The notes under the pieces were generated by a model. The model had not been told where the DNA came from. It was given only the letters and a program-made list of their open reading frames with translations, and searched no databases. DNA of 64,000 nucleotides from Candidatus Bathyarchaeota archaeon. Lineage in GTDB: Archaea > Thermoproteota > Bathyarchaeia > 40CM-2-53-6. The stretch is taken from assembly GCA_963753065.1 (NCBI GenBank), contig CAVWAQ010000002.1, forward strand, positions 535 to 64,534, written 5' to 3'. Positions 1,844 through 63,109 of this stretch are shown piece by piece; the first letter of the stretch is position 1; each line of letters begins with the position of its first letter. The position numbers and the translations under genes are program-made.

Positions 1844-2599
1844 ATGGAGCGCGTTTCATCCGGAGTCAAGGGATTGGACGAGATCCTAGAGGGAGGGTTC
1901 CCCAAGGCAAGGACGATCCTCATCGTGGGAAGCCCAGGATCAGGCAAGACGATTCTCGCGATCCAGTATCTGCGGGCTGGGGCCCTGAAGGGTGAACGTT
2001 CGATCTACGTCACATTCGACGAGAGGCCAGAACAGGTCAAGGAGAACATGTCTGCTTTCAGCTGGGACTTGGACGGGTTGGAGGGGGAAGGCAAGATCAT
2101 GTTCGTCGACGCGACTCCCTTCCGAAGGATGAAGGCGACCTCGACGATCGGGCCCGACGGACGACCAGACATACTCGCTCAGGATGCCTTGCCTGAGATC
2201 ACACTGCGTGCGCTCGTTGAGACCGTGAGGCGTCTTGCTGAGGAAGAGGGTGTGACGAGACTCGTCGTTGACCCGATTACTTCTCTTTCGGTTCGATATC
2301 AGTCGCCGATCAAAAGAAGGCGGGCGATGCTTATGCTCTTCGATGCTCTCTCGTCGACCGGTGCGACATGCCTCGTTAACAGCGAATTGAGAACTTCCAT
2401 GCTGACTCGAAGGTTCCAGCTTGAGGAGTATCTGTCGCAGGGCGTCGTGCTCATGCGAACGGGCATTCATGAAGGTAACGTCGTCAGGGCAGTTCAAGTG
2501 GAGAAGATGAGAGGCATCGCGCACGATACCCAACTGCGCCCATACACGATCGGTCAGAACGGGATCGAAGTCTTCGCGAAAGACAAAGTCTTCAAATGA
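1844..2599 (+). CDS. Single-domain KaiC-like (RecA-superfamily) ATPase
   Basis: The 251-aa ORF has GVKGLDEILEGGFPKARTILIVGSPGSGKTILAIQYL (Walker A) and a Walker B-like RLVVDPITS. This is the typical archaeal KaiC/RadA-like architecture. Confidence 0.85.
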   Translation: MERVSSGVKGLDEILEGGFPKARTILIVGSPGSGKTILAIQYLRAGALKGERSIYVTFDERPEQVKENMSAFSWDLDGLEGEGKIMFVDATPFRRMKATSTIGPDGRPDILAQDALPEITLRALVETVRRLAEEEGVTRLVVDPITSLSVRYQSPIKRRRAMLMLFDALSSTGATCLVNSELRTSMLTRRFQLEEYLSQGVVLMRTGIHEGNVVRAVQVEKMRGIAHDTQLRPYTIGQNGIEVFAKDKVFK

Positions 2600-2739
2600 C
2601 CACATAGGGCGAGCACAAGCTCTTGTTTCTAGAGATGAGCAAGCGGGGCCCTCAATAGTCATGTAGAGCCACAGCATGGAACTTGATTCTCTTCGCTTGG
2701 GTGGGCATTCCGTTGTTGCGGTTCCACCTGCATTCATCG
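2597..2739. repeat. Rearranged fragment (copy C) of the hairpin-unit/structured-element family
   Basis: 2597-2632 (TGACCACATAGGGCGAGCACAAGCTCTTGTTTCTAG) resembles the left half-unit and junction of copies A and B on the + strand. 2683-2739 carries the conserved core GGTGGAACCGCAACAACGGAATGCCCACC in the opposite orientation. It begins at the TGA stop of the KaiC-like gene. Confidence 0.6.
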
Positions 2740-2800
2740 TTTTTCTAGAGAAAAAGGTACGTACGGTGGATGCCTCGAGGAATCCACCGTGAGCAGAGGT

Positions 2801-3529
2801 TCACTCAGGTTCGTTCTTTCTGTGTACTCTGGCAAAGACTACGACAGCAAGTACTGTAAAAGTCACGATCAACCAGCTGCTTGAGAACTCTGGGACTGGA
2901 GTGCCGGTGATTGTGACTGTTTGCGTATAGCCTGACCTTGCAACTGTCGTCACCGGTGATCCGCTCTCTGGAGTTGCAAGCGACGGACCCCAAGTGTAGG
3001 TCCCGGCTGTCGAAGGATTAATGAAGAAACCTGCCACACATACGGAATCCAGATACACAGCATTTCCGACCATGGTTTTTGGAATCTGGAAGACCATTTT
3101 GCCTGGCGTAGTCGGAGTAGGCTCGGTCAGTTCCATGTAAGTGGTGTACGTAATGATCACCACGCTGACCGTCGTAACGAAGTGATCTGGAGTGGTTGTG
3201 GTCTTAACGTTGAATGGAGCGCTTAAGGCGCCGCCGGGCTGACCCGCTGTGCCTGTTATGATCGTGATTCCCGACGTACTTGTGATGTATGTAGGGTTGA
3301 TTGAGTATCCGGCTGGAATGACCACGGAGAGGCTAGCGAGAGCCATTTTGCTGTCTGTGTTCTCAATGTGAAACTTGTAGACCGCATCCGTTGCCCCTGG
3401 CTGGGTCGCATCCGTTGCCCCTGAGGTAGTCACATCAAGCGTTGGCGTGGTTGCAAAATCCGCGAGAGCATACGGAGTTACGGCGAGAAGCATCAGGATC
3501 GTCACTATCAGAAGAGTGATTCTCTTCAT
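2801..3529 (-). CDS. Secreted surface protein with a PEF-CTERM-like sorting signal
   Basis: The 242-aa ORF has an N-terminal signal peptide (MKRITLLIVTILMLLAVTPYALA). Its C-terminus is tripartite: TPVPEF, then a TM (SSSWLIVTFTVLAVVVFA), then a basic tail (RVHRKNEPE). Confidence 0.75.
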   Translation of the reverse strand: MKRITLLIVTILMLLAVTPYALADFATTPTLDVTTSGATDATQPGATDAVYKFHIENTDSKMALASLSVVIPAGYSINPTYITSTSGITIITGTAGQPGGALSAPFNVKTTTTPDHFVTTVSVVIITYTTYMELTEPTPTTPGKMVFQIPKTMVGNAVYLDSVCVAGFFINPSTAGTYTWGPSLATPESGSPVTTVARSGYTQTVTITGTPVPEFSSSWLIVTFTVLAVVVFARVHRKNEPE

Positions 3530-3927
3530 AGTGTTTGTTCACCTCCCTACAACCTTGAGGAATATCTTTGCTTTCACTCGCTGTCTGTCTATGACCCCAA
3601 TGTCACTATTTATGACCTTGCGTGTCTGCTTGATCAGGTGAATTGAACGGGGATTCGAGATACCGGCCCTTCGAAGCGCCATTCCATGTCTCATGTAGTG
3701 TGGGTCTCAGGGTGCACAGGCAGATCAAGCAACGCCGGCCTTGAAACGAGCTAAGCCCTGGATTGTTTGTGTGATGCGACGCGAAAAGGGCATAATCAAG
3801 AGACCTAGATAGAACAGTAACGCGAATGGATCAGCGAACGTAGCGACACGGCTCCGCCACAGATCCTACTGCACGGCTTCGTCGTTGAATACGCTGTAGT
3901 CGACGACGAGCTTGTTGTGGTGCTCGA

Positions 3928-4296
3928 TTATGAGCTCATGCTTGCCGTAACAGTCACCGTGCTTGTGCTAGTCGTATACTGCACCGTGGTCCAGACACCG
4001 TAGGCTAGGCTTGTCAGAATGGGCCAGATGGTTGAGATTGTCCAAATGGTCGTGGTCGTATAGATGATTGTAGTAACAGTGGCATTGGACGCCTACTGAG
4101 CAAACAAAGACGCACCAGCATAAACTCCCGACCCGGCCGAAAGCATGACCGCAAGCATCAGCAGCACCGCCACTAATGCCGAACGCCCTGGCTGACTACC
4201 GGAAGCATGATCGTCAGCTTTGTTCTTCAATTCTTTCTCCTTCTCTTTTCTTCCCGAAGTCACTTGTTTGACTCGAGTTCTTGCCTGAGCGTTCAT
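3928..4296 (-). pseudogene. Truncated, nonsense-interrupted paralog of the N-terminus of the LamG surface protein at 44155-45111
   Basis: ALVAVLLMLAVMLSAGSGVYAGASLFAQ-TAG-ASNATVTT...YGVWTTVQYTTSTSTVTVT parallels VLMAVLLVLVVLLSLGSGLYAGASFFPQQASNVTTT...YGVWTTVQYTTSTSTVTVT. An in-frame TAG replaces a Gln codon, and the copy ends before the LamG domain. Confidence 0.6.
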
Positions 4297-4514
4297 CTAA
4301 CGGCGCTTCCGACCAGTGCCTCGGACAGAGTGGCTGTTCTATCCTCGGACTTCTGCGACTCTGCCCAGATCTCCAAAGTATGACGGGTATTGTTCTCTGC
4401 TGAACGCTATCCATGCTGCTCTCCGAATCCATATGCGGTTCGTTACTAAACGCTCTTGTAGTTGACACATCCCGGGGGGTAGAACAGTGGTAGGTGTCGC
4501 GAGAAACCCTTAAC

Positions 4515-4898
4515 TGATTCTCTTCGCGACTGAAGTCGCGGAGATTCATGCTTCCACCGCTGGTCCTTTGTTGGGTGGGCATTCCGTTGTTGCGGTTCCA
4601 CCCGCATCCATCCCAGCGCAGAAGCATAGGCCAAACCATCGGCCTGACGGCGTACCCGCCGCAGCGAGCCGCCATATTCACGACGCCTCTACCTACTCGA
4701 GCCTGCCCCGCCTATTTTCGGTTGAGAGCCTTTTTCGAGCCTTCGGACATCTCAACCACATCTGAGCCTACTGTCCCTTTTGGGATTGTCTCATTCGGCC
4801 CAGGAGATCCGGTGTGTGCGAGACATTTAAGCTGCAGGGGCTCGCTTACTCCACACCTAAAGTCGCGAGCTTGCGCTCCCCCCATTATGGTCAACTAT
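4515..4898 (-). repeat. Copy A: hairpin repeat unit interrupted by a structured insert of about 325 nt (candidate non-autonomous mobile element or ncRNA)
   Basis: The minus strand reads TGACCATAATGGGGGGAGCGCAAGCTCGCGACTTTAG | GTGTGGAGTAAGCGAGCCCC...GGTGGAACCGCAACAACGGAATGCCCACCC...GGAAGCATGAATCTCCGCGACTTCAG | TCGCGAAGAGAATCAG. The last ~190 nt are about 90% identical by eye to 58290-58466. Confidence 0.7.
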
Positions 4899-4927
4899 GC
4901 GTCAGCGTTCAGGAGAGACGAAGCGGT

Positions 4928-5767
4928 TTGAAGCTCAGGAACAGGTTGACGCTTTTCTTTGTCATCTACATCATTGCACTAAGTTTTGTTCCTCTGCTTC
5001 ATGATACGCTCCTTGCTCAAGGGAAATGGCTTGGGTACGGCACAGGCGCCTACCAGTATCAGAGCCAGAGCTACTTTGTCCTCTTCAATGATCCGTACGA
5101 TGGCAGCAGCAAACCGCACATCCATGTGAACCCAAGCTTCGCGCCCGCCAGCCGGATCAGCCTGATCGAGTTCAGCGATTGGACGTCTTGGGTGAATGGT
5201 TACAACCTCTTCAATGATTTCAATGTGACGATGCGAGCAAGTCCCCAGACGCTTGACATCACATACAGTGGGCCTGGACTGGTCCTCCACAAGTACATCG
5301 AGATGTCATCGGATGCGGTGAAGGTCATAATGCAGTCCGAAAAGGAGTTCACTGCTCACGTCGAGATGTGGAGATGGGTGATGACATCCATAAACGGGAT
5401 ATCGATAAAGGATGTAGCGAAGCCTCTGGTGATCGCTCCGACGACTTTGCTCGAGTTCACATTTTCGGATGACGGTCTCCCGGGCCTCGGACATGGACGT
5501 ATCGTGATGTCTGCTGTGCCATCTCAGATAGAGATCTGGCCTTACGAGAATGGCTTCAACAAGATCACCGTTGACTTCGTGAACAGCATGATGTCATTCA
5601 CGGTGTCTGGCTCGATGGAGGCAGTCGGAACACCGTCACTGGAGTGGAACTATTCGCTGCTACCCTATGTTCTGCCGGTCGTATCGGTAACGGTAGTCGC
5701 GCTGTACTTGTTGGTCGGTAGGTATGGAAGAACGATCAAGAATCGTGCTGCTAGCCGCGGCAATTAG
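4928..5767 (+). CDS. Membrane-anchored extracellular protein (hypothetical)
   Basis: This is the ORF 4814-5767. The likely start is the in-frame TTG at 4928, giving MKLRNRLTLFFVIYIIALSFVPLL as a signal anchor. There is a C-terminal TM plus basic tail (LPVVSVTVVALYLLVGRYGRTIKNR). The upstream part of the ORF overlaps repeat copy A. Confidence 0.6.
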   Translation: MKLRNRLTLFFVIYIIALSFVPLLHDTLLAQGKWLGYGTGAYQYQSQSYFVLFNDPYDGSSKPHIHVNPSFAPASRISLIEFSDWTSWVNGYNLFNDFNVTMRASPQTLDITYSGPGLVLHKYIEMSSDAVKVIMQSEKEFTAHVEMWRWVMTSINGISIKDVAKPLVIAPTTLLEFTFSDDGLPGLGHGRIVMSAVPSQIEIWPYENGFNKITVDFVNSMMSFTVSGSMEAVGTPSLEWNYSLLPYVLPVVSVTVVALYLLVGRYGRTIKNRAASRGN

Positions 5768-7073: not shown

Positions 7074-7150
7074 ACTGGAGGAAGTAGCTCATAGATGCAC
7101 TAAAAGATAATTAGGATCATCTGAGACCTGTTCGGATGTAGCCTCGGGTT

Positions 7151-37360: not shown

Positions 37361-38056
37361 TTGAAAATTGAATCTCTACTATTTTCGATAGATGACGTGC
37401 TATATGATACGTCCCAACAGCTGAGCGCTTCCAGAATGAGCGCTGTAATGGCGATGAAATCAGCCGGACTGCCCATCGACGTTGAAACAGCCTATCGGAA
37501 GCTGGATGAGATCGCTAAGGAGAGAGGCCCGGACGACACAAGACACTTCGACACGTTGCTGGAACGTCTAGGCCTCAAATGGAGCCCCGAGGTCATAGCA
37601 GCAGGCGTAGTCGCTTACCGTGCGACGAGCCCTATCTACCTGACGCCGTTCCCTGACACCGCCCCCACGCTCCTGAAACTCAGAGATGCTGGATACAAGC
37701 TCGGTGTCGCCTCGAAGGGCCGAGCCGTGAAGCAGTGGCAGAAATTGATCCAGCTTGGCTTGGAGTACGTGTTCCACGCCGTCACCATTTCCGAAGAGAC
37801 AGGATCCGAGAAACTCACCACGGACACACTATCTAGGACACTCGAGAGACTGGGCAACGTGAAGCCTGAACGGTCGCTCTTCGTAGGTTCCGACTTGGCG
37901 AATGAAATCGCACTTGCAAATGCGGCCAAGATGATCACCGTAAGGATCAAGACTGGAGCGCATCGAACAAGCACACCCAAAACTGCCGAAGAGAAACCGG
38001 CGTTTGAGATAAACAGACTGTCAGACATGTTCGAGATCCTACGGACGAGCACCTAG
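37361..38056 (+). CDS. HAD-superfamily hydrolase (phosphatase)
   Basis: The TTG start gives motif I as SIDDVLYDT, a degenerate DxDx(T/V). Other motifs are VASKG and VGSDLANE. Confidence 0.7.
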   Translation: MKIESLLFSIDDVLYDTSQQLSASRMSAVMAMKSAGLPIDVETAYRKLDEIAKERGPDDTRHFDTLLERLGLKWSPEVIAAGVVAYRATSPIYLTPFPDTAPTLLKLRDAGYKLGVASKGRAVKQWQKLIQLGLEYVFHAVTISEETGSEKLTTDTLSRTLERLGNVKPERSLFVGSDLANEIALANAAKMITVRIKTGAHRTSTPKTAEEKPAFEINRLSDMFEILRTST

Positions 38057-38419
38057 GATCGCAAGTTCGCTCCAACCGAGACTGATTGAGCTCGGGCTTA
38101 AGCACATATCCGTGTCGTCACCATACCAGTAGAGGCCGGGTCGGAAATCTTCAACACGGAGGCCGTTTCCAAGATGGCGCGCTCCTTGGAAAGGCGCGGC
38201 GTAGGTAGGTGCCTTCGTTTTGGTGTTGAGAAAGAAGGGCGTAGTGATGCGCGGGCTCACGGTGGCGAATCTTCAGGCCTCATGCGCGTAATCTGAAGGG
38301 CATATGCAGTAGATGGCGTGTCAGTTTCATCGCACATGTCTCGTCCCCTTCGTGTCCGCAAAGGCGACGAGGTAAGACTTAAGATTCCGTAATACTCCTG
38401 CCTGTGTAAGGGATGGAAT

Positions 38420-39440: not shown

Positions 39441-41916
39441 GTGAAAGACTTGCCTGGTAAGCGCCAACGTAGAGCCCCTTCATACATAGCGTTCTTGCTT
39501 CTTCTCCTACTCGCTCTTGTATTCTTCCCGGTCCACGTTCTCGGCAGCCAAGGAGCACTACCTGATTCGCAAATGGCAGCTCCGCTCCAAGCTGATGCTC
39601 AAACGATTGAACAGGCAACTCAGGCTTGCTTGACACCGTCCCCAGCTGACTATGCCACCGTTCAGATACGAGCTGCCAGCGCCAACGGCACGATAAGTGG
39701 TCATGTCATCCCAGATGTTGTAACGAGGAAGGCTGTGCAGAAGGGGAGGATGCCCCGCGATTTCATGTTCCACATCGAACTTGTGTTCAAGTTGAGAAAT
39801 CCGGATCAGTTCTCAAAGTGTCTAGCATCAATAAGCGACCCCTCTTCCCCCGACTATGGCCATTTTCTCAATGCGACCACGCTGGCGCCCTACATGCCTA
39901 CTCCCGGACAAAGAGCATCGATCATGTCGCATCTTTCTAGAATGGGACTCGACGTGACCGAAGGCGCTTCGCCCTTGGTTCTGAAACTCTCGGGGACCGT
40001 GAAAGCGATCGAGAAGGCCTTTGGAGTGACGATGAATCTATACGCAGAAAAGGCGAACGCGGGCTTCTACGCAACGGACTCAGACCCCATGATGCCACAG
40101 AACTTCGCATCTATGGTGAACGGGATCATGGGCCTAGACAATTCCACGCGCCCCATACCCGCGGAGCATCCCTGCTCTGGCCCCTACTGTCCCCAAGGAA
40201 TCCAAGTGGGATACTCGCTCTCCAGTCTCTTCGGAAATGGGTATGATGGAACAGGACAAAAAGTGGCAATAGTCGATGTTCCTGGCGACTCCAACATAAC
40301 GAGCACAATCAACACATACAGCACGATGTACGGCTTACCTTCAACCACGTTGGATATCCGCTATCCCGACGGACTACCTTCATCATATGACTCGAGCTGG
40401 GCTGTTGAGACGGCATTGGATGTTGAAGCAGTCCATGCCGTTGTTCCGAAGGCTGCGATCGTGTTGTTGTACGATTACGACCCAATGAACGCCATAGGCT
40501 ATGTGGCTGCCAAGCATCTTGCTACTATCGTTTCCAACAGCTGGAGATACGTTTGCGCGTCTAGCGTGCCTTGTAGCGACACTCAGCTTCCCTCATCATT
40601 CGTTGACTCCGTGCACAGTCTACTGGCCACTTATGCGGCGCAAGGGCTCACGATACTTTTCGCGTCAGGCGATGAAGGTGCAACGCCCGACGGCACCACT
40701 TATGGCACGGAGTTTCCCGCATCGGACCCGAATGTGCTGGCCGTTGGTGGGACTAACCTTGCCCTGTCTGGCTGTGGCTACTACACATGTTCTGGCTACG
40801 CTAGTGAGACGGGGGCCTCGATAAGCGGGGGAGGATACAGCGGGAACTTCGCAGAACCTTCGTGGCAGGCATCGACAATCGGTGCAAGGTCGGGGCGAGC
40901 GGTTCCGGATATCTCGATGATTGGTCAAAGCCCATACTTCTGGACCTACCTAACTGGTTCCGGGTGGTTCGGCGCGTACGGGACCAGCCTCTCCACCCCC
41001 CTATGGGCAGGGTTTCTGGCGATTGTTCTGCAGATGAAAGGAGGCAGCCCATTCGGTAACATCGATCCGTTACTCTACCAAACCGCCAGCAGCCCCTTGT
41101 ACTCGTCAATCTTCCATGATGTGACATCGGGATCAAATGGCTACTCCGCTGTGATCGGGATGGGATCCGGTTACGGGCTGGGGCACCCCGGTAGCGAGCC
41201 TTCTCGCGCCTGCGCTCGCAGGGCTCATAGTCACTTCAACTCTTACGTCTACATCGGCGTAACCTCGGCATCCTACTTGTCGCTGACGACAACAAGGACG
41301 ACACAAGCTACACTAGCACGGCCACGTCCACAAGCACGGTCCCCGCCGTCACTACTGTGGTCTTGCTTCCGTTAGTCATCACTTCAATTGTGCAGAGCAT
41401 CCAGTATCTAACTTCAATTCTCAGCACGACAGTTACGAGTTACACTGGCACTCAGGCTTCGACGAGTACGATCGTGGTTCCGACAACTGTTGTATTGGTT
41501 CCGTCTACACGACCTCAACCGCCCAAAGCACCCAATATCTAACCTCTACAACTGCGACTACGGTGACTGACTACACTGGCACGGAGACTCGACGAGCACA
41601 ATATTGGTGTCCAACAACGTTGTCTTGGTCCCGTTGACCGCGACCTCAACGGAACAGAAGTACACAGTATCTGACCTCAACTTCCACAACAACAGTGACT
41701 AACTACACAGACACGTCGACCTCCACAAGCACGAGCGTAGTCTACACAACCGTAACCGTGAGTCAAGGAGGAGCAGGAACTAACGCATCGAGTCCATTGG
41801 CCTATCTTGGCTTCATGTCAGTACTCGCTATCATGGCTAGCCACGGGGTCACCGCCGGCAGAAGTCGGAGGCGCCTACAAGATCGTCATCTTGCGAACAT
41901 CACCAAGGGTATCTGA
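39441..41916 (+). pseudogene. Secreted S53 (sedolisin/kumamolisin-like) peptidase with a Ser/Thr-rich repeat stalk and C-terminal anchor, broken by several frameshifts after about 41157
   Basis: A GTG at 39441 gives the signal peptide. Pro-kumamolisin activation-domain-like sequence is SDPSSPDYGHFLN...VKAIEKAFGVTMNLY. Catalytic-type motifs are ALDVEAVHA, FASGDEG and AYGTSLSTPLWAG. After GYSAVI the expected GWDPVTGWGTPVASLLAP is in the +2 frame (extra G in GGG at 41157-41159). The repeat stalk and anchor (ORFs 41357-41542 and 41695-41916) are in further frames. Confidence 0.7.
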
Positions 41917-42964: not shown

Positions 42965-44158
42965 GTGATCCGTGCGAGGGCGGCGCTGAGCAGCCTCTGC
43001 TTCTTGATTGGTCTATTGATCGCGCTCAGCACGCTTAGTTTCCCCGTATACGCTGGCCTCCCAGATCTCACGGTTGACAGTATATGGCTTGAGAGAGCCT
43101 CAGCTCCTGGCGTGCCGGTGACAGGAACCGACTTGGCTCTTAACGAGTCATTCAACATAGTTGCAAGTATCAAGAACATAGGAAAAGAGGCTGCCAACGG
43201 GTACTATCTGGACGTGTACTATGACAGTAACTACGGTCGCGGCGGGCCGGACAACATTACAGCAGGCGAGGTCCAGCAATGGTATGTCGGGCCACTCACC
43301 GCCACGGCTGGCACACATAACACGACATGGGTCGTGGACCCTGACAATCAGATCACGGAACTGAACGAACAGAACAACGTGAAACAGTACACGTTCACCA
43401 TCGGATCCTCGCCAACACAGACAACGACCAATTCCACATCTGTCCCTGAGACAAACACCACATCCACGGCCACGGTTTCGGTAACAGTCATACAGAATTC
43501 GACTTCATACTCATATGGGGACACGACAACGACAGTTACGAGTTACAGCACGTCCACCTCCACAAGTACGATTCCGACTGTCACAACTGTCATCTTGGTC
43601 CCGTTGACGGTAGCCTCGACTGTCCAGAGCACTCAACTTCTGAATTCCACTCTCACAACGACGGTGACCAGTTACACAGGCACCTCGACGAGTACGATCC
43701 CGACTGTCACAACCGTTGTCTTGCTTCCGTCTACGGCGACCTTAGCCGTCCAAAACACTCAATATGTAACGTCAGTTCTCACAACGACGGTGACCAGTTA
43801 CACTGGTACGCAGGCTTTGACGAGCACAGTGATGGTTCCAACGACCGTCACCCTAGCTCCGTTGGCCACAACTTCATCAGTCCAAGCAAGGCAGGTTCAA
43901 ACGTCGACTGGTACCACAACGGTGACCAAATATACGACCGTGACGACAGTTGTCTACACGGGGACGTTGACTTCGACAAGTACGAGGGTGGTCTACACTA
44001 CAGCAACCAGTCTAGCTAGCGCTGGTGTATCGAGCCCCTTGGCCTACCTTGGGCTCATATCGCTGCTTGCTTTCACGTTTGGTAGGGTCATTGTTGGGAA
44101 AGGTTTGAAGATCCCGAAAGTGCGATCGTGGATGGGGAAGAGGTGTTCGGGTAATTGA
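42965..44158 (+). CDS. Surface protein: CARDB-like domain, Ser/Thr-rich tandem-repeat stalk and C-terminal anchor
   Basis: There is a signal peptide and CARDB-like sequence (LPDLTVDSIWLE...NIVASIKNIGKEAANGYYLDVYYD...NEQNNV). About 3.5 repeats of roughly 42 aa follow. The C-terminus is SSPLAYLGLISLLAFTFGRVIVGKGLK. Confidence 0.75.
   Translation: MIRARAALSSLCFLIGLLIALSTLSFPVYAGLPDLTVDSIWLERASAPGVPVTGTDLALNESFNIVASIKNIGKEAANGYYLDVYYDSNYGRGGPDNITAGEVQQWYVGPLTATAGTHNTTWVVDPDNQITELNEQNNVKQYTFTIGSSPTQTTTNSTSVPETNTTSTATVSVTVIQNSTSYSYGDTTTTVTSYSTSTSTSTIPTVTTVILVPLTVASTVQSTQLLNSTLTTTVTSYTGTSTSTIPTVTTVVLLPSTATLAVQNTQYVTSVLTTTVTSYTGTQALTSTVMVPTTVTLAPLATTSSVQARQVQTSTGTTTVTKYTTVTTVVYTGTLTSTSTRVVYTTATSLASAGVSSPLAYLGLISLLAFTFGRVIVGKGLKIPKVRSWMGKRCSGN
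43524..43990 (+). repeat. Tandem coding repeats of 126-135 bp (Thr/Ser-rich stalk)
   Basis: Units start near 43524, 43655, 43781 and 43916 (ACAACGAC[AG]GT[GT]AC[CG]AGTTAC...). Decayed copies of the same unit occur at about 41290-41760. Confidence 0.7.
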
Positions 44159-45639: not shown

Positions 45640-46620
45640 CGCATGTGCAGGCAGCTGAGCACTTCCAGAATGAGCACTGTGAGGGCGATGAAATCACCCG
45701 GACCGTCGACCGACGCTGAAACCGCCTACCGCAAGCTAGAAGATCGCTATAGAGAGGCCCGGACGACCCAGGACGCTGACACCTTGCTCGAACGCCTCGG
45801 CTTCAAATGAAACCCTGAAGTCATAGCGGCCGGGAAAGTCGCTTACCGTGCGACGAGTCCGATCTACTTGGTGCCATTCCCTGACACCGCGCCCAGGCTG
45901 CCGAAACTGAGCCGTTGGGTACAAGCTCGGCGTTGGCTCAAAAGGCCGAGCGGTGAAGCATTGGCAGAAACTGACCCAGCTTGGGCTTGAGCACATATCC
46001 AATGCCGTCACCGTACCAGAAGAGGCCAGATACCAAGCCCTCAGGACGGAGGCCCTTTCCAAGATGGCGCCCTGCTCGCCACTGCGCGTGCTCCTTATTC
46101 CAACTACTACAACCTCGTGAACGTGGAGGAGATCTTCGCCTTCTGAAGGTCAATTGGGCAGGCTGCGCTGAAGTGGCTCGTGATATCTTCGCACACAAAC
46201 GGCGTGTTCTGGGTAACTCGGTATCCGCGATCGCGAAACGCCTCGACATGATGAGAAGTTAACCCGACATCTTCTGCATGAGCGCAGTCTTCATGGCAGG
46301 CTAGGTAATCATGAATCCTTTCAGACGTGGACTTCGCTAGAGCGTCCTCCGCCTCACTACTCGATGTCTAAAACTCAAGCCTGTTGCCGACACGTATGTC
46401 TTGGCGCATAGAGGGAGGGGCGTAGTGATGCGTGTCCTCACGTTGGCAAATCCTCAGACTTCGCACAACATGCAGGGAAGATCAAGTAGACTGCCCGTCG
46501 GGTCCTCCCTTTCCTCGTGTCCATCGAGTCAAGTATCAGTTCGTCGCCGAAGTTCCCATGCTCGTATCAGCCGAATACTATCGTGCTTATCGTCATCTCT
46601 GTCCGAAAGCACCACTCATC
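45640..46620 (+). pseudogene. Mosaic of decayed fragments homologous to the HAD gene (37361-38056), its downstream region, and the 3' end of the kinase gene (35228-36214)
   Basis: 45640-46000 parallels 37418-37770 (translated: STSRMSTVRAMKSPGPSTDAETAYRKLEDRYREARTTQDADTLLERLGFK vs SASRMSAVMAMKSAGLPIDVETAYRKLDEIAKERGPDDTRHFDTLLERLGLK). 46225-46300 parallels 35955-36030 (CGCCTCGACATG...CCCGACATCT). 46410-46470 parallels 38235-38290 (GGGCGTAGTGATGCG). Confidence 0.6.
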
Positions 46621-57951: not shown

Positions 57952-58036
57952 ACGCCTCCTACAAAAACCACCGAACGTTTCGGTGCTGCAATACTCCATT
58001 TTTTCTTTCGACCTATTATGCGTGGGCTGGCTCCCA

Positions 58037-58473
58037 TGACCATGATGAGAGCGCGTGCAAGCTCCTCTCTTCAGACATGGAGTAAGCGAGCCCTCAGCAG
58101 TCTCAAGCGAGCGGCAGCATAGCCCCCAAACGAGCCATTGAGACTCGCGACGAACAGCACCCTGAACGCCAATTGTGGCCACGGTTGAATACATGACCAT
58201 AACTGGACGAGCGCAAGCTTCCGACTTCAGTCGCGGAGACAATCAAATGCAGTCTCTTGGATGGATTGTGGCTTAGAGGCGCACCGGGACGCAGTTGGCG
58301 TCTTGAATATAGCTGCTCGTTACGGCGAGTATGCTGTCAGGCCGATGGTTTGGCCTATGCTTCTACGATGGGATGGATGCGGGTGGAACCGCAACAGCGG
58401 AATGCCCACCAAGCGAAGAGGATCATTGTGGAAGCATGAATCCCCGCGACCTTTAGTCGCGGAGAGAGTCAAG
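58037..58473 (+). repeat. Copy B: hairpin half-unit + structured insert (with a nested intact hairpin unit at 58194-58246) + terminal hairpin
   Basis: TGACCATGATGAGAGCGCGTGCAAGCTCCTCTCTTCAG | ACATGGAGTAAGCGAGCCCTCAGCAG...GGTGGAACCGCAACAGCGGAATGCCCACC...GGAAGCATGAATCCCCGCGACCTTTAG | TCGCGGAGAGAGTCAAG. It is collinear with copy A. Confidence 0.7.
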
Positions 58474-59627: not shown

Positions 59628-59696
59628 CTGACCATAACTGGCCGAGCGCAAGCTCCCGACTTCAGTCGAGGAGAGAATCAACAGTTGTGTCGGTCA
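59628..59696 (+). repeat. Intact hairpin repeat unit D
   Basis: The sequence is CTGACCATAACTGGCCGAGCGCAAGCTCCCGACTTCAGTCGAGGAGAGAATCAACAGTTGTGTCGGTCA. The central hairpin is CTCCCGAC-TTCA-GTCG(A)GGAG. Outer short inverted repeats are TGACC/GGTCA and AACTG/CAGTT. It lies between convergent TA modules and overlaps the vapC stop codon (59694-59696). Confidence 0.6.
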
Positions 59697-60074
59697 ATCG
59701 AATAGCTTCAACTCGTGTGCTCTTAGGGGTTTGAAGTGTCTAAGGTTCAGGGTGTATAAGCTTGCTCCGTTGTTGATCGTCACGGCGGCTATGATCGCAT
59801 CTGTTCTACGTATGGTTGTGCCGGCTTTCTCAGTCTCCGCCTCCAACTTGGCGGATAGTTGCGCGTCTTCTTTTCCGAAGCTTAGCACGGGTAACTGTAG
59901 AACTTCTCTTACGGGTTTAGCGTATTTGTGCAAGCCGTACATGATCTCGTGGAGGTTTATCGCGGTAATGCTGATCTTGTCGTCACTTTCAAGGATCTTT
60001 CTCAGGGCTTCATCGCCCTTCCCGGATCGTTTGTCGAAGATCTCAATCAGAACGCCGGTATCCAGTACTACCAT
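59694..60074 (-). CDS. vapC: PIN-domain toxin VapC
   Basis: The PIN signature is MVVLDTGVLIEIF...ITAINLHEIMYG...DAIIAAVTINNGASLYTLNLRHF. Confidence 0.85.
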   Translation of the reverse strand: MVVLDTGVLIEIFDKRSGKGDEALRKILESDDKISITAINLHEIMYGLHKYAKPVREVLQLPVLSFGKEDAQLSAKLEAETEKAGTTIRRTDAIIAAVTINNGASLYTLNLRHFKPLRAHELKLFD

Positions 60075-60283: not shown

Positions 60284-60447
60284 GGCTCCTCAATGGAGCG
60301 GGGATGTTTAAACATAGATTTAGACCCACGACCACGCTTCGCGCCCAGATTTCGCGCTTAGCTTCTTCCATGGAAAATATGTGCGCGTCTATGATCATGT
60401 CGACTCTACCGCCATCGATCGCACGTATGACATCATCATAATTCGTA

Positions 60448-60499
60448 GCCACGACTAGGCGAGTGCGAGCTCCCGACTTCAATCACGGAGAGAATCAAG
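60448..60499 (+). repeat. Degenerate hairpin repeat unit E
   Basis: GCCACGACTAGGCGAGTGCGAGCTCCCGACTTCAATCACGGAGAGAATCAAG is the same unit with a weakened 3' arm. It overlaps the stop of the 60495-60749 gene. Confidence 0.5.
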
Positions 60500-60854: not shown

Positions 60855-61628
60855 TCATAGCGCTTCTCGGAAAAGATCACGGCTCCTATTCATCGCTAGC
60901 TTGGAACCGATGTTTCGCTTGCTCATGCTGATTCTCTTGGCACCCTTGATGATGGCTGCTGGGACTCCTTCTGCGCCTTGACCCATTACGAGTTCCGCGG
61001 CGCAGGCAAGCTCATCGGCGATCGATACGAACTTGAACTTCAGGATGTTGCCGAACAAGTCCTTGGCCCCACGGTAGTCAACAAACGGATTGAGTCCGCT
61101 CGTGCCGATCGCGAATTCGCTCTGTCCAGCTCTGAAGGGCCTACTGTACGTGTCAGTAACGATTACCTGCACGCGTTTTCCGGTTTGCTTCAATATTCGT
61201 TTCGCGATCCGCGCAGCTGATAGCTTCGGGTTCCAAGGTAGGAGACAGTACGTGTCGGGACCTTCCACATTGGATTTGTCGATGCCAGCGTTCAAGCACA
61301 CGATCCCGTGCTTAGTCTCAACAAGAAGTATCCTAGGCTTGGCCCTGATGACCCGACACGATTCGTTGAGGATCAACTGAACAAGCCGGGGATCCTTCAG
61401 GCATTTTCGTGCGATCTTGATTGCATGGGCAGATGGTTTGACTCCGGAGAGTCGACGGATCCGACCTTCCGATTTCGAGATGATCTTGTGACCAATGACG
61501 AGAACATCGCCATTCGCAATTCGGATATGAAGGCGCCTCGCCCTCTCTAACACCAGTTCGGCGATGTCATCCCCCGGCTTCACTAGCGGAAAACCCTTCA
61601 GCCCAAGGATTCTCACATCGCCTCTCAT
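60855..61628 (-). CDS. cofE: Coenzyme F420-0:L-glutamate ligase
   Basis: LGLKGFPLVKPGDDIAELV, GDVLVIGHKIISKSEGR, NAGIDKSN, VIVTDTYSRPFRAGQSEFAIG and ELVMGQGAEGVPAAIIKG are present. Confidence 0.85.
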   Translation of the reverse strand: MRGDVRILGLKGFPLVKPGDDIAELVLERARRLHIRIANGDVLVIGHKIISKSEGRIRRLSGVKPSAHAIKIARKCLKDPRLVQLILNESCRVIRAKPRILLVETKHGIVCLNAGIDKSNVEGPDTYCLLPWNPKLSAARIAKRILKQTGKRVQVIVTDTYSRPFRAGQSEFAIGTSGLNPFVDYRGAKDLFGNILKFKFVSIADELACAAELVMGQGAEGVPAAIIKGAKRISMSKRNIGSKLAMNRSRDLFREAL

Positions 61629-61689: not shown

Positions 61690-63109
61690 GGCTGGCCGAA
61701 AATTCATAGCGGTTGACTTGGTTGTGTCAACTGCGCTTCTTTTCGGTTTCTGGGCTCACTCGGTTCTGCGCCGAGTTCATCCCCAGCTTGGGCCAAGCCT
61801 ACTGTGGCCCTTCGGGTCGTGGCCAATGGCAAGAAACGCGACCCGATATTCAATGCGCCAACATAGTCCGCGTTGTAGATGAGCTCACAGCCCCAGCAGT
61901 GGAAGATGCTCTGCGTGGGACGGTCCGTGTTCCGTGAGCCGCAACGCGGACAAGTCATGCTCGTCCACCGCTCATCCACGACGCGGACGGGGATGCCGTG
62001 TTCAGCGCATTCTTCTTGGATGAAGCGTATGGCACGGCCATACGCCCACCCAGTCAACAGTCTACGCAGGTACGGCTTCCCGTTACCACGATATGCGCTA
62101 CGATACTTCAACAGCTTCGGGTGTCCGACCGCGACGAGCGTACGATTCGATAGATCCGCGACCTGTTTCGCCATGAGATGGTCATAGTATTCTGCCACGT
62201 GCATACGTTTGTGTCGGAGACGCTTCAGTGGTTCCCACTTTCGCGCCCGCTGCAGCTCCGCGATTCTGCGGTTCAACATTCGAAGACGGGCACGCTTCGT
62301 ACCACCCCGAACCGTCTTGAAGTCGTATCCTCCGAGCTGCTTCATGGCTACAGTTGCTACTGAGCGTTTCACGCCGAGGTCTATCCCGCGCACTGCATGG
62401 GCTGGCTGGTCGGGGACGCTGTACTCAACCTTCACATGAACGTAGTATTTGCCATCGCGTTTCACAAGCTGGAAGCTCTTCAAGTCACTCTTCGACAGCA
62501 GATCCAGATGGTACATCGCAGGATTCAGTGGAATTGTGAGCTTTGCGCCTCTTCGCAGCGTGGAGACACGTGCGACGCACGGGCATAGTTTCGCCCTCTC
62601 AGATTTCTCGATAGAGCCGAGTTGGCTGTCGAACCATATTGGAACCTTACGGCGCATGCCTTTCGTGAATGGCTTCTGGGGTTCACGTTTCAGCAGCCGC
62701 CGCAGCCATCGCCAATCTCCGTTCCGTCTCGCTTCGGCGACCTGCCGTCGCCATTTACGATGCAGTGTCCTGTAGCTGCTCCACATCCACTTCGTCGTAT
62801 CGTAGCAGCATTGAACCATATGTCCAGGCAGATGCGTCTCAGCCTTCACCTGTTCGTAGAACCGCGCCCTATCCGCATAGGTGCCTTCCAGGTTGTACTC
62901 ATCGAACCGTTTCGACCAGAGACAAACACCATATGTCAGTCGAGCCGTGAGCTTGTCGAGGATGCAGCGTTTCCGCTCCGTTAACGCGTAGTGAACCGGC
63001 ACACAAACAGTCTTGACAACCTGCAAGGCTGACAATTCCTTCTAGTTGAAGTTTAAATGGGCGAGAGATGAGTGAAGATTAACACGTCAGTGGCGATTTC
63101 CGGCCAGCC
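61690..63109 (-). mobile_element. TIR-bounded 1,420-bp element carrying only a tnpB gene
   Basis: GGCTGGCCGAAAAT (61690-61703) and ATTTCCGGCCAGCC (63096-63109) are inverted repeats matching at 13 of 14 positions. One lies immediately outside the tnpB stop and the other about 60 nt upstream of its start. There is no tnpA. An ATTTAAAC TATA-like box (complement 63058-63051) lies inside the element. Confidence 0.65.
61704..63035 (-). CDS. tnpB: TnpB (IS200/IS605 OrfB-family RuvC-like RNA-guided nuclease)
   Basis: The 443-aa ORF has a TTG start. RuvC-I is RGIDLGVKR, RuvC-II is VRVVDERWTS, the zinc finger is CPRCG...CWGC, and RuvC-III is NADYVGALNI. Confidence 0.9.
   Translation of the reverse strand: MSALQVVKTVCVPVHYALTERKRCILDKLTARLTYGVCLWSKRFDEYNLEGTYADRARFYEQVKAETHLPGHMVQCCYDTTKWMWSSYRTLHRKWRRQVAEARRNGDWRWLRRLLKREPQKPFTKGMRRKVPIWFDSQLGSIEKSERAKLCPCVARVSTLRRGAKLTIPLNPAMYHLDLLSKSDLKSFQLVKRDGKYYVHVKVEYSVPDQPAHAVRGIDLGVKRSVATVAMKQLGGYDFKTVRGGTKRARLRMLNRRIAELQRARKWEPLKRLRHKRMHVAEYYDHLMAKQVADLSNRTLVAVGHPKLLKYRSAYRGNGKPYLRRLLTGWAYGRAIRFIQEECAEHGIPVRVVDERWTSMTCPRCGSRNTDRPTQSIFHCWGCELIYNADYVGALNIGSRFLPLATTRRATVGLAQAGDELGAEPSEPRNRKEAQLTQPSQPL

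Follow-up and report, generated by a model that had tools for sequence, protein, structure and literature searches.

A 376-nt gene-less element in a Bathyarchaeia contig is very probably a decaying PATE-like derivative of an IS608-type insertion sequence

Introduction

Palindrome-associated transposable elements (PATEs) are gene-less derivatives of IS200/IS605 insertion sequences (IS) in Haloquadratum walsbyi (PMC3119063). They also occur in Geobacillus stearothermophilus, and TnpB acts in trans on the omega-RNAs that they often encode (Meers et al. 2023, PMC10055086). The locus described here raises the question of whether a structured segment with no intact gene in an archaeal contig is an element of this kind, and where it begins and ends. 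The segment, copy A, lies in a 64,000-nt stretch (the window) of contig CAVWAQ010000002.1 from Candidatus Bathyarchaeota archaeon. An earlier note on this DNA had proposed a ~325-nt element inserted between TTYAG and TCG in a pre-existing 53-55-nt hairpin repeat, with TTCAG as its target and intact repeat units elsewhere in the window as its empty sites; it had considered a PATE-like IS200/IS605 derivative and, alternatively, an intron-like RNA lacking an open reading frame (ORF). Copy A very probably belongs, in a decaying state, to a family of ~380-nt PATE-like elements that have no genes and descend from an IS608-type IS200/IS605 element of Bathyarchaeia. Its true boundaries, target and relation to the hairpin units differ from those first proposed.

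Results and Discussion

Extent of copy A and its target site

On the minus strand, positions 4898..4515 read TGACCATAATGGGGGGAGCGCAAGCTCGCGACTTTAG, then GTGTGGAGTAAGCGAG…GACTTCAG, then TCGCGAAGAGAATCAG, and the two outer pieces and the insert are laid out as first described. The element itself was delimited with orthologous loci (loci are given L numbers), which were reached through a homolog search with the protein of the flanking gene. This gene (4928..5767, read with a TTG start, 279 amino acids [aa]) has orthologs in L137 (90% at the aa level), in L138 and L139 (86%), and in others. The window minus 4514-4889 is the orthologous empty-site sequence of L138 and L139, identical across the junction. 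With 4514..4889 deleted the window reads …GGTAGGTGTCGCGAGAAACCCTTAA|GTCAACTATGCGTCAGCGTTCAGG…, and the empty site at L138 and L139 reads CGCGAGAAACCCTTAAGTCAACTATGC (within the longer stretch …GGTTGGTGTCGCGAGAAACCCTTAAGTCAACTATGCTTCAGCGTTCAGG…), or, in the sense of the element, ...GCATAGTTGAC|TTAAGGG.... The empty site of L137 agrees too, with one substitution, which falls in the target. Because the empty sites equal the window minus 4514-4889, copy A is the 376-nt segment 4514..4889 (minus strand), a non-autonomous IS200/IS605 (IS608-type) element with no intact gene, inserted precisely 3' of TTGAC and with no target duplication; the same sites set the right boundary after 4514. The 53-nt unit is absent from all three empty sites, and the insertion point first proposed, between TTYAG and TCG, lies inside the left hairpin of the element.

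Relatives were collected by a genome scan with an exact pattern from the core of the 3' module, using one genome per species, which gave 15 loci, and by a metagenome scan with a right-end/unit pattern, which added 120. All 15 genome loci come from metagenome-assembled genomes (MAGs) of Bathyarchaeia, and 10 of them from a single MAG. In every copy homology starts at TGACCATAAC… and stops at …GAGAGAATCAA, with unrelated flanks. When all loci are pooled, conservation in the 79 unique left flanks starts abruptly at the T of TGAC, each base of which is kept in 76-77 flanks, while position -1 and the sequence upstream are random. The target site and transposon-adjacent motif (TAM) of copy A is thus read as TTGAC, with the core TGAC (4890..4894, minus strand), outside the element and flanking its left end. 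TTCAG did not hold up as target or TAM, since the left flanks become conserved at TGAC and the empty sites show TTGAC.

At the other end, all 111 unique right ends terminate in TCAA (the search pattern permitted TCA followed by A or G), and the flank directly after is random. TCAA is the right cleavage site of IS608; in copy A this transposon-encoded end motif reads TCAG (4514..4517, minus strand). The 16-nt right piece that had been taken for a guide-matching flank is the 3' arm of the right hairpin plus the terminal TCAA. A TnpB takes its guide from the flanking DNA immediately past the right end, on its 3' side (PMC8612924, PMC10055086). By analogy, the guide here is predicted to be the variable flank after TCAA, and the predicted guide segment of an RNA from copy A is TTAAGGGTTTCTCGCG (4498..4513, minus strand), flanking DNA outside the element. 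The same segment adjoins TTGAC in the empty sites of L138 and L139.

Family members and coding relatives

BLAST of copy A against the 15 genome loci gave some full matches of ~380 nt. In L005, L007, L011 and L013, its first ~55 nt and last ~173 nt were matched 1.36-1.73 kb apart, and the interval encodes a 408-aa TnpB with OrfB_IS605 and TNB domains. The TnpB of L011 matches PF01385 (E = 1.8e-14) and PF07282 (E = 2.7e-18), as well as Cas12f/TnpB chains in PDB (E ~ 2e-7). Between the same ends L007 also carries a 143-aa ORF for a Y1 TnpA (PF01797, Y1_Tnp, E = 2.3e-36); the Y1 TnpA of L005 and L013, which also encode tnpB, was matched by tblastn. L011 and about 13 others have only tnpB between these ends. 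Full-length relatives with tnpA and tnpB, which the earlier note had thought worth seeking, therefore exist, and the shared ends bear out its description of copy A as a non-autonomous, PATE-like IS200/IS605 derivative.

Pairing of left and right ends over all loci yields three size classes: ~375-402 nt, with 39 distinct sequences among 40 copies; ~1355-1394 nt with tnpB only (14 copies); and ~1720-1730 nt with tnpA and tnpB. The further copies on which the earlier note had made its reading depend are present, in numbers well above what chance would give, and the 38 other short copies, at unrelated sites in Bathyarchaeia MAGs and metagenomes, are ~90% identical to copy A over its full length. 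BLAST of copy A against a phage collection, run as a search for distant matches, gave none.

At least two further IS subfamilies combine other tnpB 3' regions with the same end module, GAAT-hairpin-AGARTCAA (L025, L028, L036, L040, L072, L090, L103 and others; L001 at 7113-7144, L042, L047, L068). Because this module is shared, one type of TnpA may serve several TnpB lineages. Putative omega-RNA regions are expected in subfamilies 2 and 2b and in the 'GGGAGCCATGAAG' subfamily. The right end of a subfamily 2b element (L036, 459-484) and a 394-nt short element (L037, 1073-1466) have a common 3' flank, tttggcgtccacctcaatgt, which could reflect independent use of one site or exchange of bodies between identical ends. 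L012 holds two mini-derivatives of ~170 nt with different flanks (987-1156 and 2019-2189), each of which has kept just 35 nt of the left end, having lost the 3' arm of the hairpin there, and the final ~120 nt of the element.

End hairpins and DNA guides

IS608 is the structural paradigm of IS200/IS605 transposition. In this Helicobacter pylori element the left cleavage site lies 19 nt 5' of a 22-nt left hairpin, TCAA lies 10 nt 3' of a 21-nt right hairpin (PMC3201880), and the DNA guides are GAAT on the right and AAAG on the left (PMC5934647). Both ends of the family described here carry near-identical imperfect hairpins of 21-22 nt in direct orientation on the same strand, with no terminal inverted repeats. 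The left-end subterminal hairpin (4849..4869, minus strand) begins 20 nt past the target TGAC and has the family consensus CTCCCGAC TTCTG GTCG-T-GGAG, that is, with its arms written out, CTCC-CGAC TTCTG GTCG-T-GGAG. The right-end subterminal hairpin (4522..4543, minus strand) has the consensus CTCCCGAC TTCA GTCG-C-GGAG, written out as CTCC-CGAC TTCA GTCG-C-GGAG; past it come the spacer AGAA and the end motif TCAA. The tetranucleotides directly 5' of the two hairpin feet read as candidate DNA guides, CAAG on the left (4870..4873, minus strand) and GAAT on the right (4544..4547, minus strand).

When IS608 is bound to its target, guide position 1 pairs with T-3 and guide position 2 with T-4 (PMC5934647). 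Compared by sequence, CAAG and TGAC fit this register, and CAAG is predicted to pair with the TAM TGAC. Since CAAG/TGAC here and AAAG/TTAC in IS608 differ by a single matched switch on both sides, the pairing would lend independent support to TGAC as the target. The right guide GAAT and the right cleavage motif TCAA are identical to those of IS608. The two systems also share hairpins of 22 nt on the left and 21 nt on the right with one bulged base each, a target that is not part of the element and precedes the left hairpin by ~20 nt, the absence of a target duplication, and the gene order tnpA, tnpB. They differ in target (TTAC in IS608, TGAC here), in left guide (AAAG against CAAG), in the spacer past the right hairpin, which is shorter here (AGAA, then TCAA), and in the archaeal host of the present family.

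Covariation supports the left hairpin. In an alignment of ten left ends (A1), 95% of cells are paired, compared with 30-54% in slid controls, and two pairs have changed on both sides, from CGAC/GTCG to TGTC/GACA, in four of the ten sequences (L007, L011, L013 and copy B, a second copy in the window). The right ends of these four retain CGAC/GTCG. Both 'junctions' of the supposed ~325-nt insert fall within the end hairpins, which TnpA would recognise.

In copy A the left hairpin is degenerate (CTCGCGAC TTTAG GTGTGGAG), with two of eight pairs broken and one further pair reduced to G.T, and the right hairpin is disturbed by one additional G and by a C.A mismatch. The GTGTG that had been noted at the 5' end is a mutated hairpin arm, where the family consensus is GTCGTGGAG. 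Because of the damaging changes in both hairpins and the end motif TCAG, copy A is probably no longer efficiently mobile.

The 3' module and the middle domain

The right part of copy A (4514..4690, minus strand) coincides with codons 363-408 of tnpB and the right end that follows them, in the same strand orientation and reading into the flank. Window positions 4687..4562 translate to the C-terminus of TnpB with 86% identity to residues 363-404 (tblastn), and the frame runs on to a TGA stop codon at 4548-4546, so that the last ~46 codons of tnpB remain (4546..4687, minus strand). The statement that no protein-coding signal explains the region is correct in that there is no intact gene, and incorrect for this remnant. 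Substitutions relative to the consensus in the 45 codons of the former tnpB tail were counted by codon position 1/2/3. They number 79/76/77 in 37 short elements and 18/22/40 in 12 tnpB-bearing elements; given this even distribution, selection no longer acts on the remnant as a protein in the short family. Even with the coding constraint lost, no other part of the short elements is as well conserved as the 3' module.

This module is presumed, from its position, to be the scaffold of an omega-RNA, the guide RNA of TnpB. It overlaps the 3' end of tnpB, where guide RNAs are encoded, in agreement with the proposal that the right end doubles as a guide-RNA scaffold. RNAalifold and a single-sequence fold give the same stems, namely a GGCC..GGCC hairpin, an inner hairpin GGGTGG..CCACCC, the right-end hairpin, and a long-range stem UAUGCUUCU/GGAAGCAUG that joins 4620-4628 with 4547-4555 (minus strand). 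The fold of 4835..4514 has -132 kcal/mol, with z = -3.5 relative to shuffled sequences. When the family is aligned with a second IS subfamily that has the same right end, the 3' module is paired in 96.8% of cells, compared with 35-47% in slid controls; a single compensatory pair (A-U to C-G) occurs, in six subfamily 2b sequences, and the sequences are highly similar. We rate the structure of the 3' module as conserved and its covariation as thin. Rfam gave nothing at gathering score for the whole window and nothing relevant at E <= 10 for 4400-5000.

A close known system is ISDra2 TnpB with its omega-RNA, the right-end element RNA or reRNA (Karvelis et al. 2021, PMC8612924). Both proteins have OrfB_IS605 and zinc-ribbon (TNB) domains, and the motifs IDIG, GELTG and HRDAV, judged by eye, are present here. 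In both systems the 3' end of tnpB and the right end are the expected source of the guide RNA, which reads into the flank, and the TAM equals the TnpA target. The TAM is TTGAT in ISDra2 and TGAC here, and the RNA proposed here has no recognisable similarity to any Rfam family.

Between the left hairpin and the 3' module lies a conserved, structured middle domain of ~150 nt (4685..4835, minus strand). It is paired in 92.6% of cells, compared with 27-55% in slid controls, and has three compensatory pairs among subfamilies. The compensatory changes on which the structural claim of the earlier note depended are therefore found in the left hairpin and the middle domain, and in the 3' module they come down to the one pair. 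The middle had been called variable; within the short family it is ~85-94% conserved, and the impression of variability came from copy B, which is a composite derivative of another kind. Among the loci gathered here the middle domain is confined to short elements and their derivatives, and it has no tblastn similarity to TnpA or TnpB, residues 270-365 of the latter included.

A dead remnant is the most serious competing explanation of these features. By this account the short family is a recently spread deletion derivative in which conservation reflects youth and the needs of TnpA at the ends, with no function of the RNA. The copies are indeed ~90% identical throughout, the 3' module has just one compensatory pair, and in copy A the hairpins are damaged and the end motif is mutated. 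However, conservation is uneven, with column identity of 95-100% in the 3' module and 79-93% elsewhere. TnpA in IS608 needs ~45 nt at the right end (PMC3201880), and the conserved 3' stretch reaches ~130 nt past this. The compensatory changes at three middle-domain pairs also speak against a functionless RNA. So does the form of several shorter derivatives, which retain ~116-130 nt at the right and are cut at, or slightly upstream of, the point where the 5' strand of the long-range stem begins, even as others are cut further in. We consider the dead-remnant explanation unlikely, though it deserves to be kept in view.

An A/T-rich box, TTAAAT (4825..4830, minus strand), lies downstream of the left hairpin. 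A TTTAA-like box occupies a fixed place past the left hairpin in all short subfamilies and in full-length copies, and TTAAAT is a possible archaeal TATA box, or promoter, driving transcription toward the right end. As a more elaborate possibility, the ~380-nt family might be a 'guide-only' selfish element whose transcript joins a dedicated 5' domain, the conserved and covarying middle that is absent from the parent IS, to the omega-RNA scaffold, a reading that we put forward tentatively and regard as doubtful. If it were true, the middle domain might stabilise the RNA or aid it in competing for the TnpB of relatives, and the element would secure its own retention while encoding no protein.

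Solo units and copy B

The three 53-nt units of the window are all intact, and lie at 58194..58246, at 59629..59681 and at 60446..60498 (diverged, 77% identical to the reference unit), on the plus strand. In the unit model, left ends match positions 1-45 and right ends positions 23-53. Because the overlap is the hairpin, a unit starts like a left end, has a single hairpin and finishes with a right-end tail, as the copy at 58194..58246 illustrates. A strict pattern found 13 units (and 4 left unassigned by the classifier) against 106 right ends, and a relaxed pattern 19 units against 122 right ends, so the unit count depends on the pattern. The 15 genome loci that hold copies from the genome scan contain no intact unit. 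Most units have the loop and bulge of a right end (TTCA, C or A). Those of L053 and L119 combine the left-type bulge T with a right-type tail, and crossover points within the hairpin therefore vary. The solo units are best read as deletion products between the two ~21-nt direct-repeat hairpins.

Copy B (58037..58472, plus strand) is composite. Its first part is a 210-nt block (58037-58246) with a left end, ~100 nt and a 'unit', and its remainder (58247-58472) is a truncated tnpB 3' end with a right end. The block, taken as 58034-58246, recurs in L102 at 92% identity with other flanks. By tblastn 58228..58419 aligns to TnpB residues 340-403, with recognisable similarity starting past the end of the unit at 58246, and the self-BLAST of the window places a second copy of the ~175-nt 3' module at 58297-58471 (86% identity).

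Repetitive extragenic palindromic (REP) elements and their REP-associated tyrosine transposases (RAYTs), together REPtrons, resemble the solo units, and these only, in being short, intergenic single-hairpin repeats related to IS200/IS605 ends. The 53-nt units might accordingly be REP-like elements moved by TnpA or a RAYT-like enzyme, with the longer elements as units that carry cargo. Solo units do occur at about 19 different flanks, and every one keeps TGAC 5' and TCAA 3'; two of them flank a vapBC-like cassette in the window, and the 210-nt block that ends in a unit is present at two sites. In contrast to REP/RAYT systems, the Y1 genes here lie inside directly oriented ends together with tnpB, and none is flanked by inverted units in the loci or the window. 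Under the IS608 code the lone guide CAAG of a single hairpin matches TGAC and not TCAA, so that cleavage at the right end would be unexpected and the units are expected to be immobile. The crossover point differs between units, which fits recurrent deletion, and the units resemble what collapse of the two ends of an active IS would leave more than they resemble a repeat maintained in its own right. Independent mobility of the units is accordingly improbable.

The units could also be what the earlier note took them for, empty sites of an element that enters a pre-existing hairpin repeat at TTCAG. In its favour the outer pieces of copy A rebuild a unit that is seen three times in the window, and L109 has a solo unit where the window has the right end of copy B. 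The empty sites of L137, L138 and L139 hold no unit, however, and the 15 genome loci have no intact one; at each of 79 unrelated left flanks the copy carries the 'unit pieces' with it. The left piece covaries as a hairpin with the first 9 nt of the supposed insert, while the matching right piece is unchanged, and TTCAG as TAM would make the right-end junction …GACTTCAG|TCGCG… a self-target. This model is very improbable: the true empty sites lack the unit, so the intact units are something other than empty sites, an outcome that its author had named as a refutation. An ORF-less, group II-like intron or a self-splicing IStron can be dismissed: copy A does read GTGTG past TTTAG and the region folds stably, but that motif is specific to copy A (the family consensus there being the hairpin arm GTCGTGGAG), no Rfam family is matched at gathering score or E <= 10, there is no reverse transcriptase or intron-encoded protein, the full-length relatives encode TnpA and TnpB, and the insertions are made at the DNA level with TAM-defined boundaries.

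Two other candidates for the units were rejected. As integron attC sites they lack GTTRRRY-type core sites, and their ends are explained by the IS; as a CRISPR-like array they are too irregularly spaced. A PIN-domain (VapC-like) gene (59697-60074, minus strand) and a short upstream ORF lie between the directly oriented units at 59629 and 60446, and in L109 another PIN gene stops 4 nt before a solo unit.

Proposed mechanism

The steps by which a decaying PATE-like element would have arisen and spread can be drawn from the established biology of IS200/IS605 elements and TnpB (PMC3201880, PMC8612924, PMC10055086). TnpA supplied in trans by an autonomous copy would bind both hairpins in single-stranded DNA, locate the cleavage sites through the 4-nt DNA guides (CAAG with TGAC, GAAT with TCAA), and move the element by peel-and-paste, with excision followed by re-insertion. 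Transcription of the right ~175 nt, which were once the final 46 codons of tnpB together with the right end, would run into the flank and give an omega-RNA. Guided by this RNA, TnpB of full-length relatives could cleave the empty donor joint, in which TGAC adjoins TTAAGGGTTTCTCGCG, and such cutting would favour re-copying, hence retention, of the element. Collapse of the left and right hairpins, as ~21-nt direct repeats, into one may yield the 53-nt units.

Several points weigh against this account of copy A and its family. The 64-kb window holds no cognate tnpA or tnpB. An IS/omega-RNA model leaves a conserved, structured middle domain unexplained. The role as omega-RNA is suggested by position and conservation, and the high conservation could also stem from a recent expansion of the family or from what TnpA requires at the right end. 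The single covarying pair of the 3' module is probably one event. The origin of the units by hairpin collapse is inferred, and their own mobility is a minor rival to it.

Comparison with PATEs and significance

PATE-like derivatives with omega-RNA regions have already been described, and the finding is otherwise ordinary. Like PATEs, the short elements have no transposase or nuclease gene, keep both ends with subterminal hairpins, occur in many copies that require mobilisation in trans, and retain the guide-RNA region of TnpB. Unlike PATEs, they reside in Bathyarchaeia, and they have a conserved, covarying middle of ~150 nt without detectable relation to tnpA or tnpB. With the stop codon a mere 32 nt from the end of the element, the whole of their presumed scaffold overlaps what used to be tnpB codons.

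The result is an exactly bounded IS608-type family in Bathyarchaeia, which are uncultured and little-studied archaea. The family now has a target motif (TGAC), an end motif (TCAA), DNA guides and three size classes, which aids annotation. It could also be a source of compact archaeal TnpB proteins with a defined TAM and scaffold. For repeat analysis the locus carries a caution, in that near-identical end hairpins in direct repeat can collapse into a 'unit' that mimics an empty target site. Interest is modest and lies in these hairpin-collapse units and in the structured middle domain of the gene-less form, which is the one feature that current models leave unexplained. As a side possibility, the 53-nt collapse products might represent an early stage of archaeal REP-like repeats.

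Neighborhood of copy A and other features of the window

Copy A lies in a variable hotspot, the gap 2600-4927 between a KaiC-like ATPase gene (1844-2599) and the 279-aa gene. Elsewhere this gap holds 135 nt (L137), a vapBC pair (L138 and L139) or a tnpB element of a different subfamily (L140). In the window it is occupied by copy A, by IS fragments and by an ORF of 242 aa (2804-3529) that matches no Pfam family. Copy A is placed 34 nt upstream of the inferred TTG start of the 279-aa gene (region 4890-4927, plus strand) and splits an A/T-rich CCCTTAAGTCAAC stretch, possibly the promoter of that gene; any effect on expression is speculative. A tRNA scan of the window found none, and tRNA-linked integration is therefore not indicated.

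Two fragments related to copy A are present. One is a piece of the tnpB 3' core, residues ~388-405 (2685..2738, minus strand), with a self-BLAST match of 42 nt at 2697-2738. The other, recognised by the left-end model and by its sequence, is a degenerate left end (2597..2650, plus strand). It starts at the TGA stop codon of the KaiC-like gene, and this stop doubles as part of the TGAC target. L139 has the same degenerate left-end fragment at 629-681, and an old insertion is suggested because this orthologous locus shares it.

A TnpB-like ORF of another kind occurs near the right edge of the window (61707-63035, minus strand, 443 aa), with a Cas12f1-like TNB domain (E = 1e-16) and 29% identity to the TnpB of the copy A family over ~200 aligned residues. 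It adjoins a gene for F420-0:gamma-glutamyl ligase (60858-61628), and no unit-type hairpin is nearby. Tandem repeats of ~126-132 nt at 41303-41733 and 43555-43866, probably coding, lie inside large ORFs and are unrelated to copy A. Equally unrelated to it are two paralogous segments of ~0.9 kb, at 37418-38281 and 45652-46462, which lie 8.2 kb apart and are 72-89% identical.

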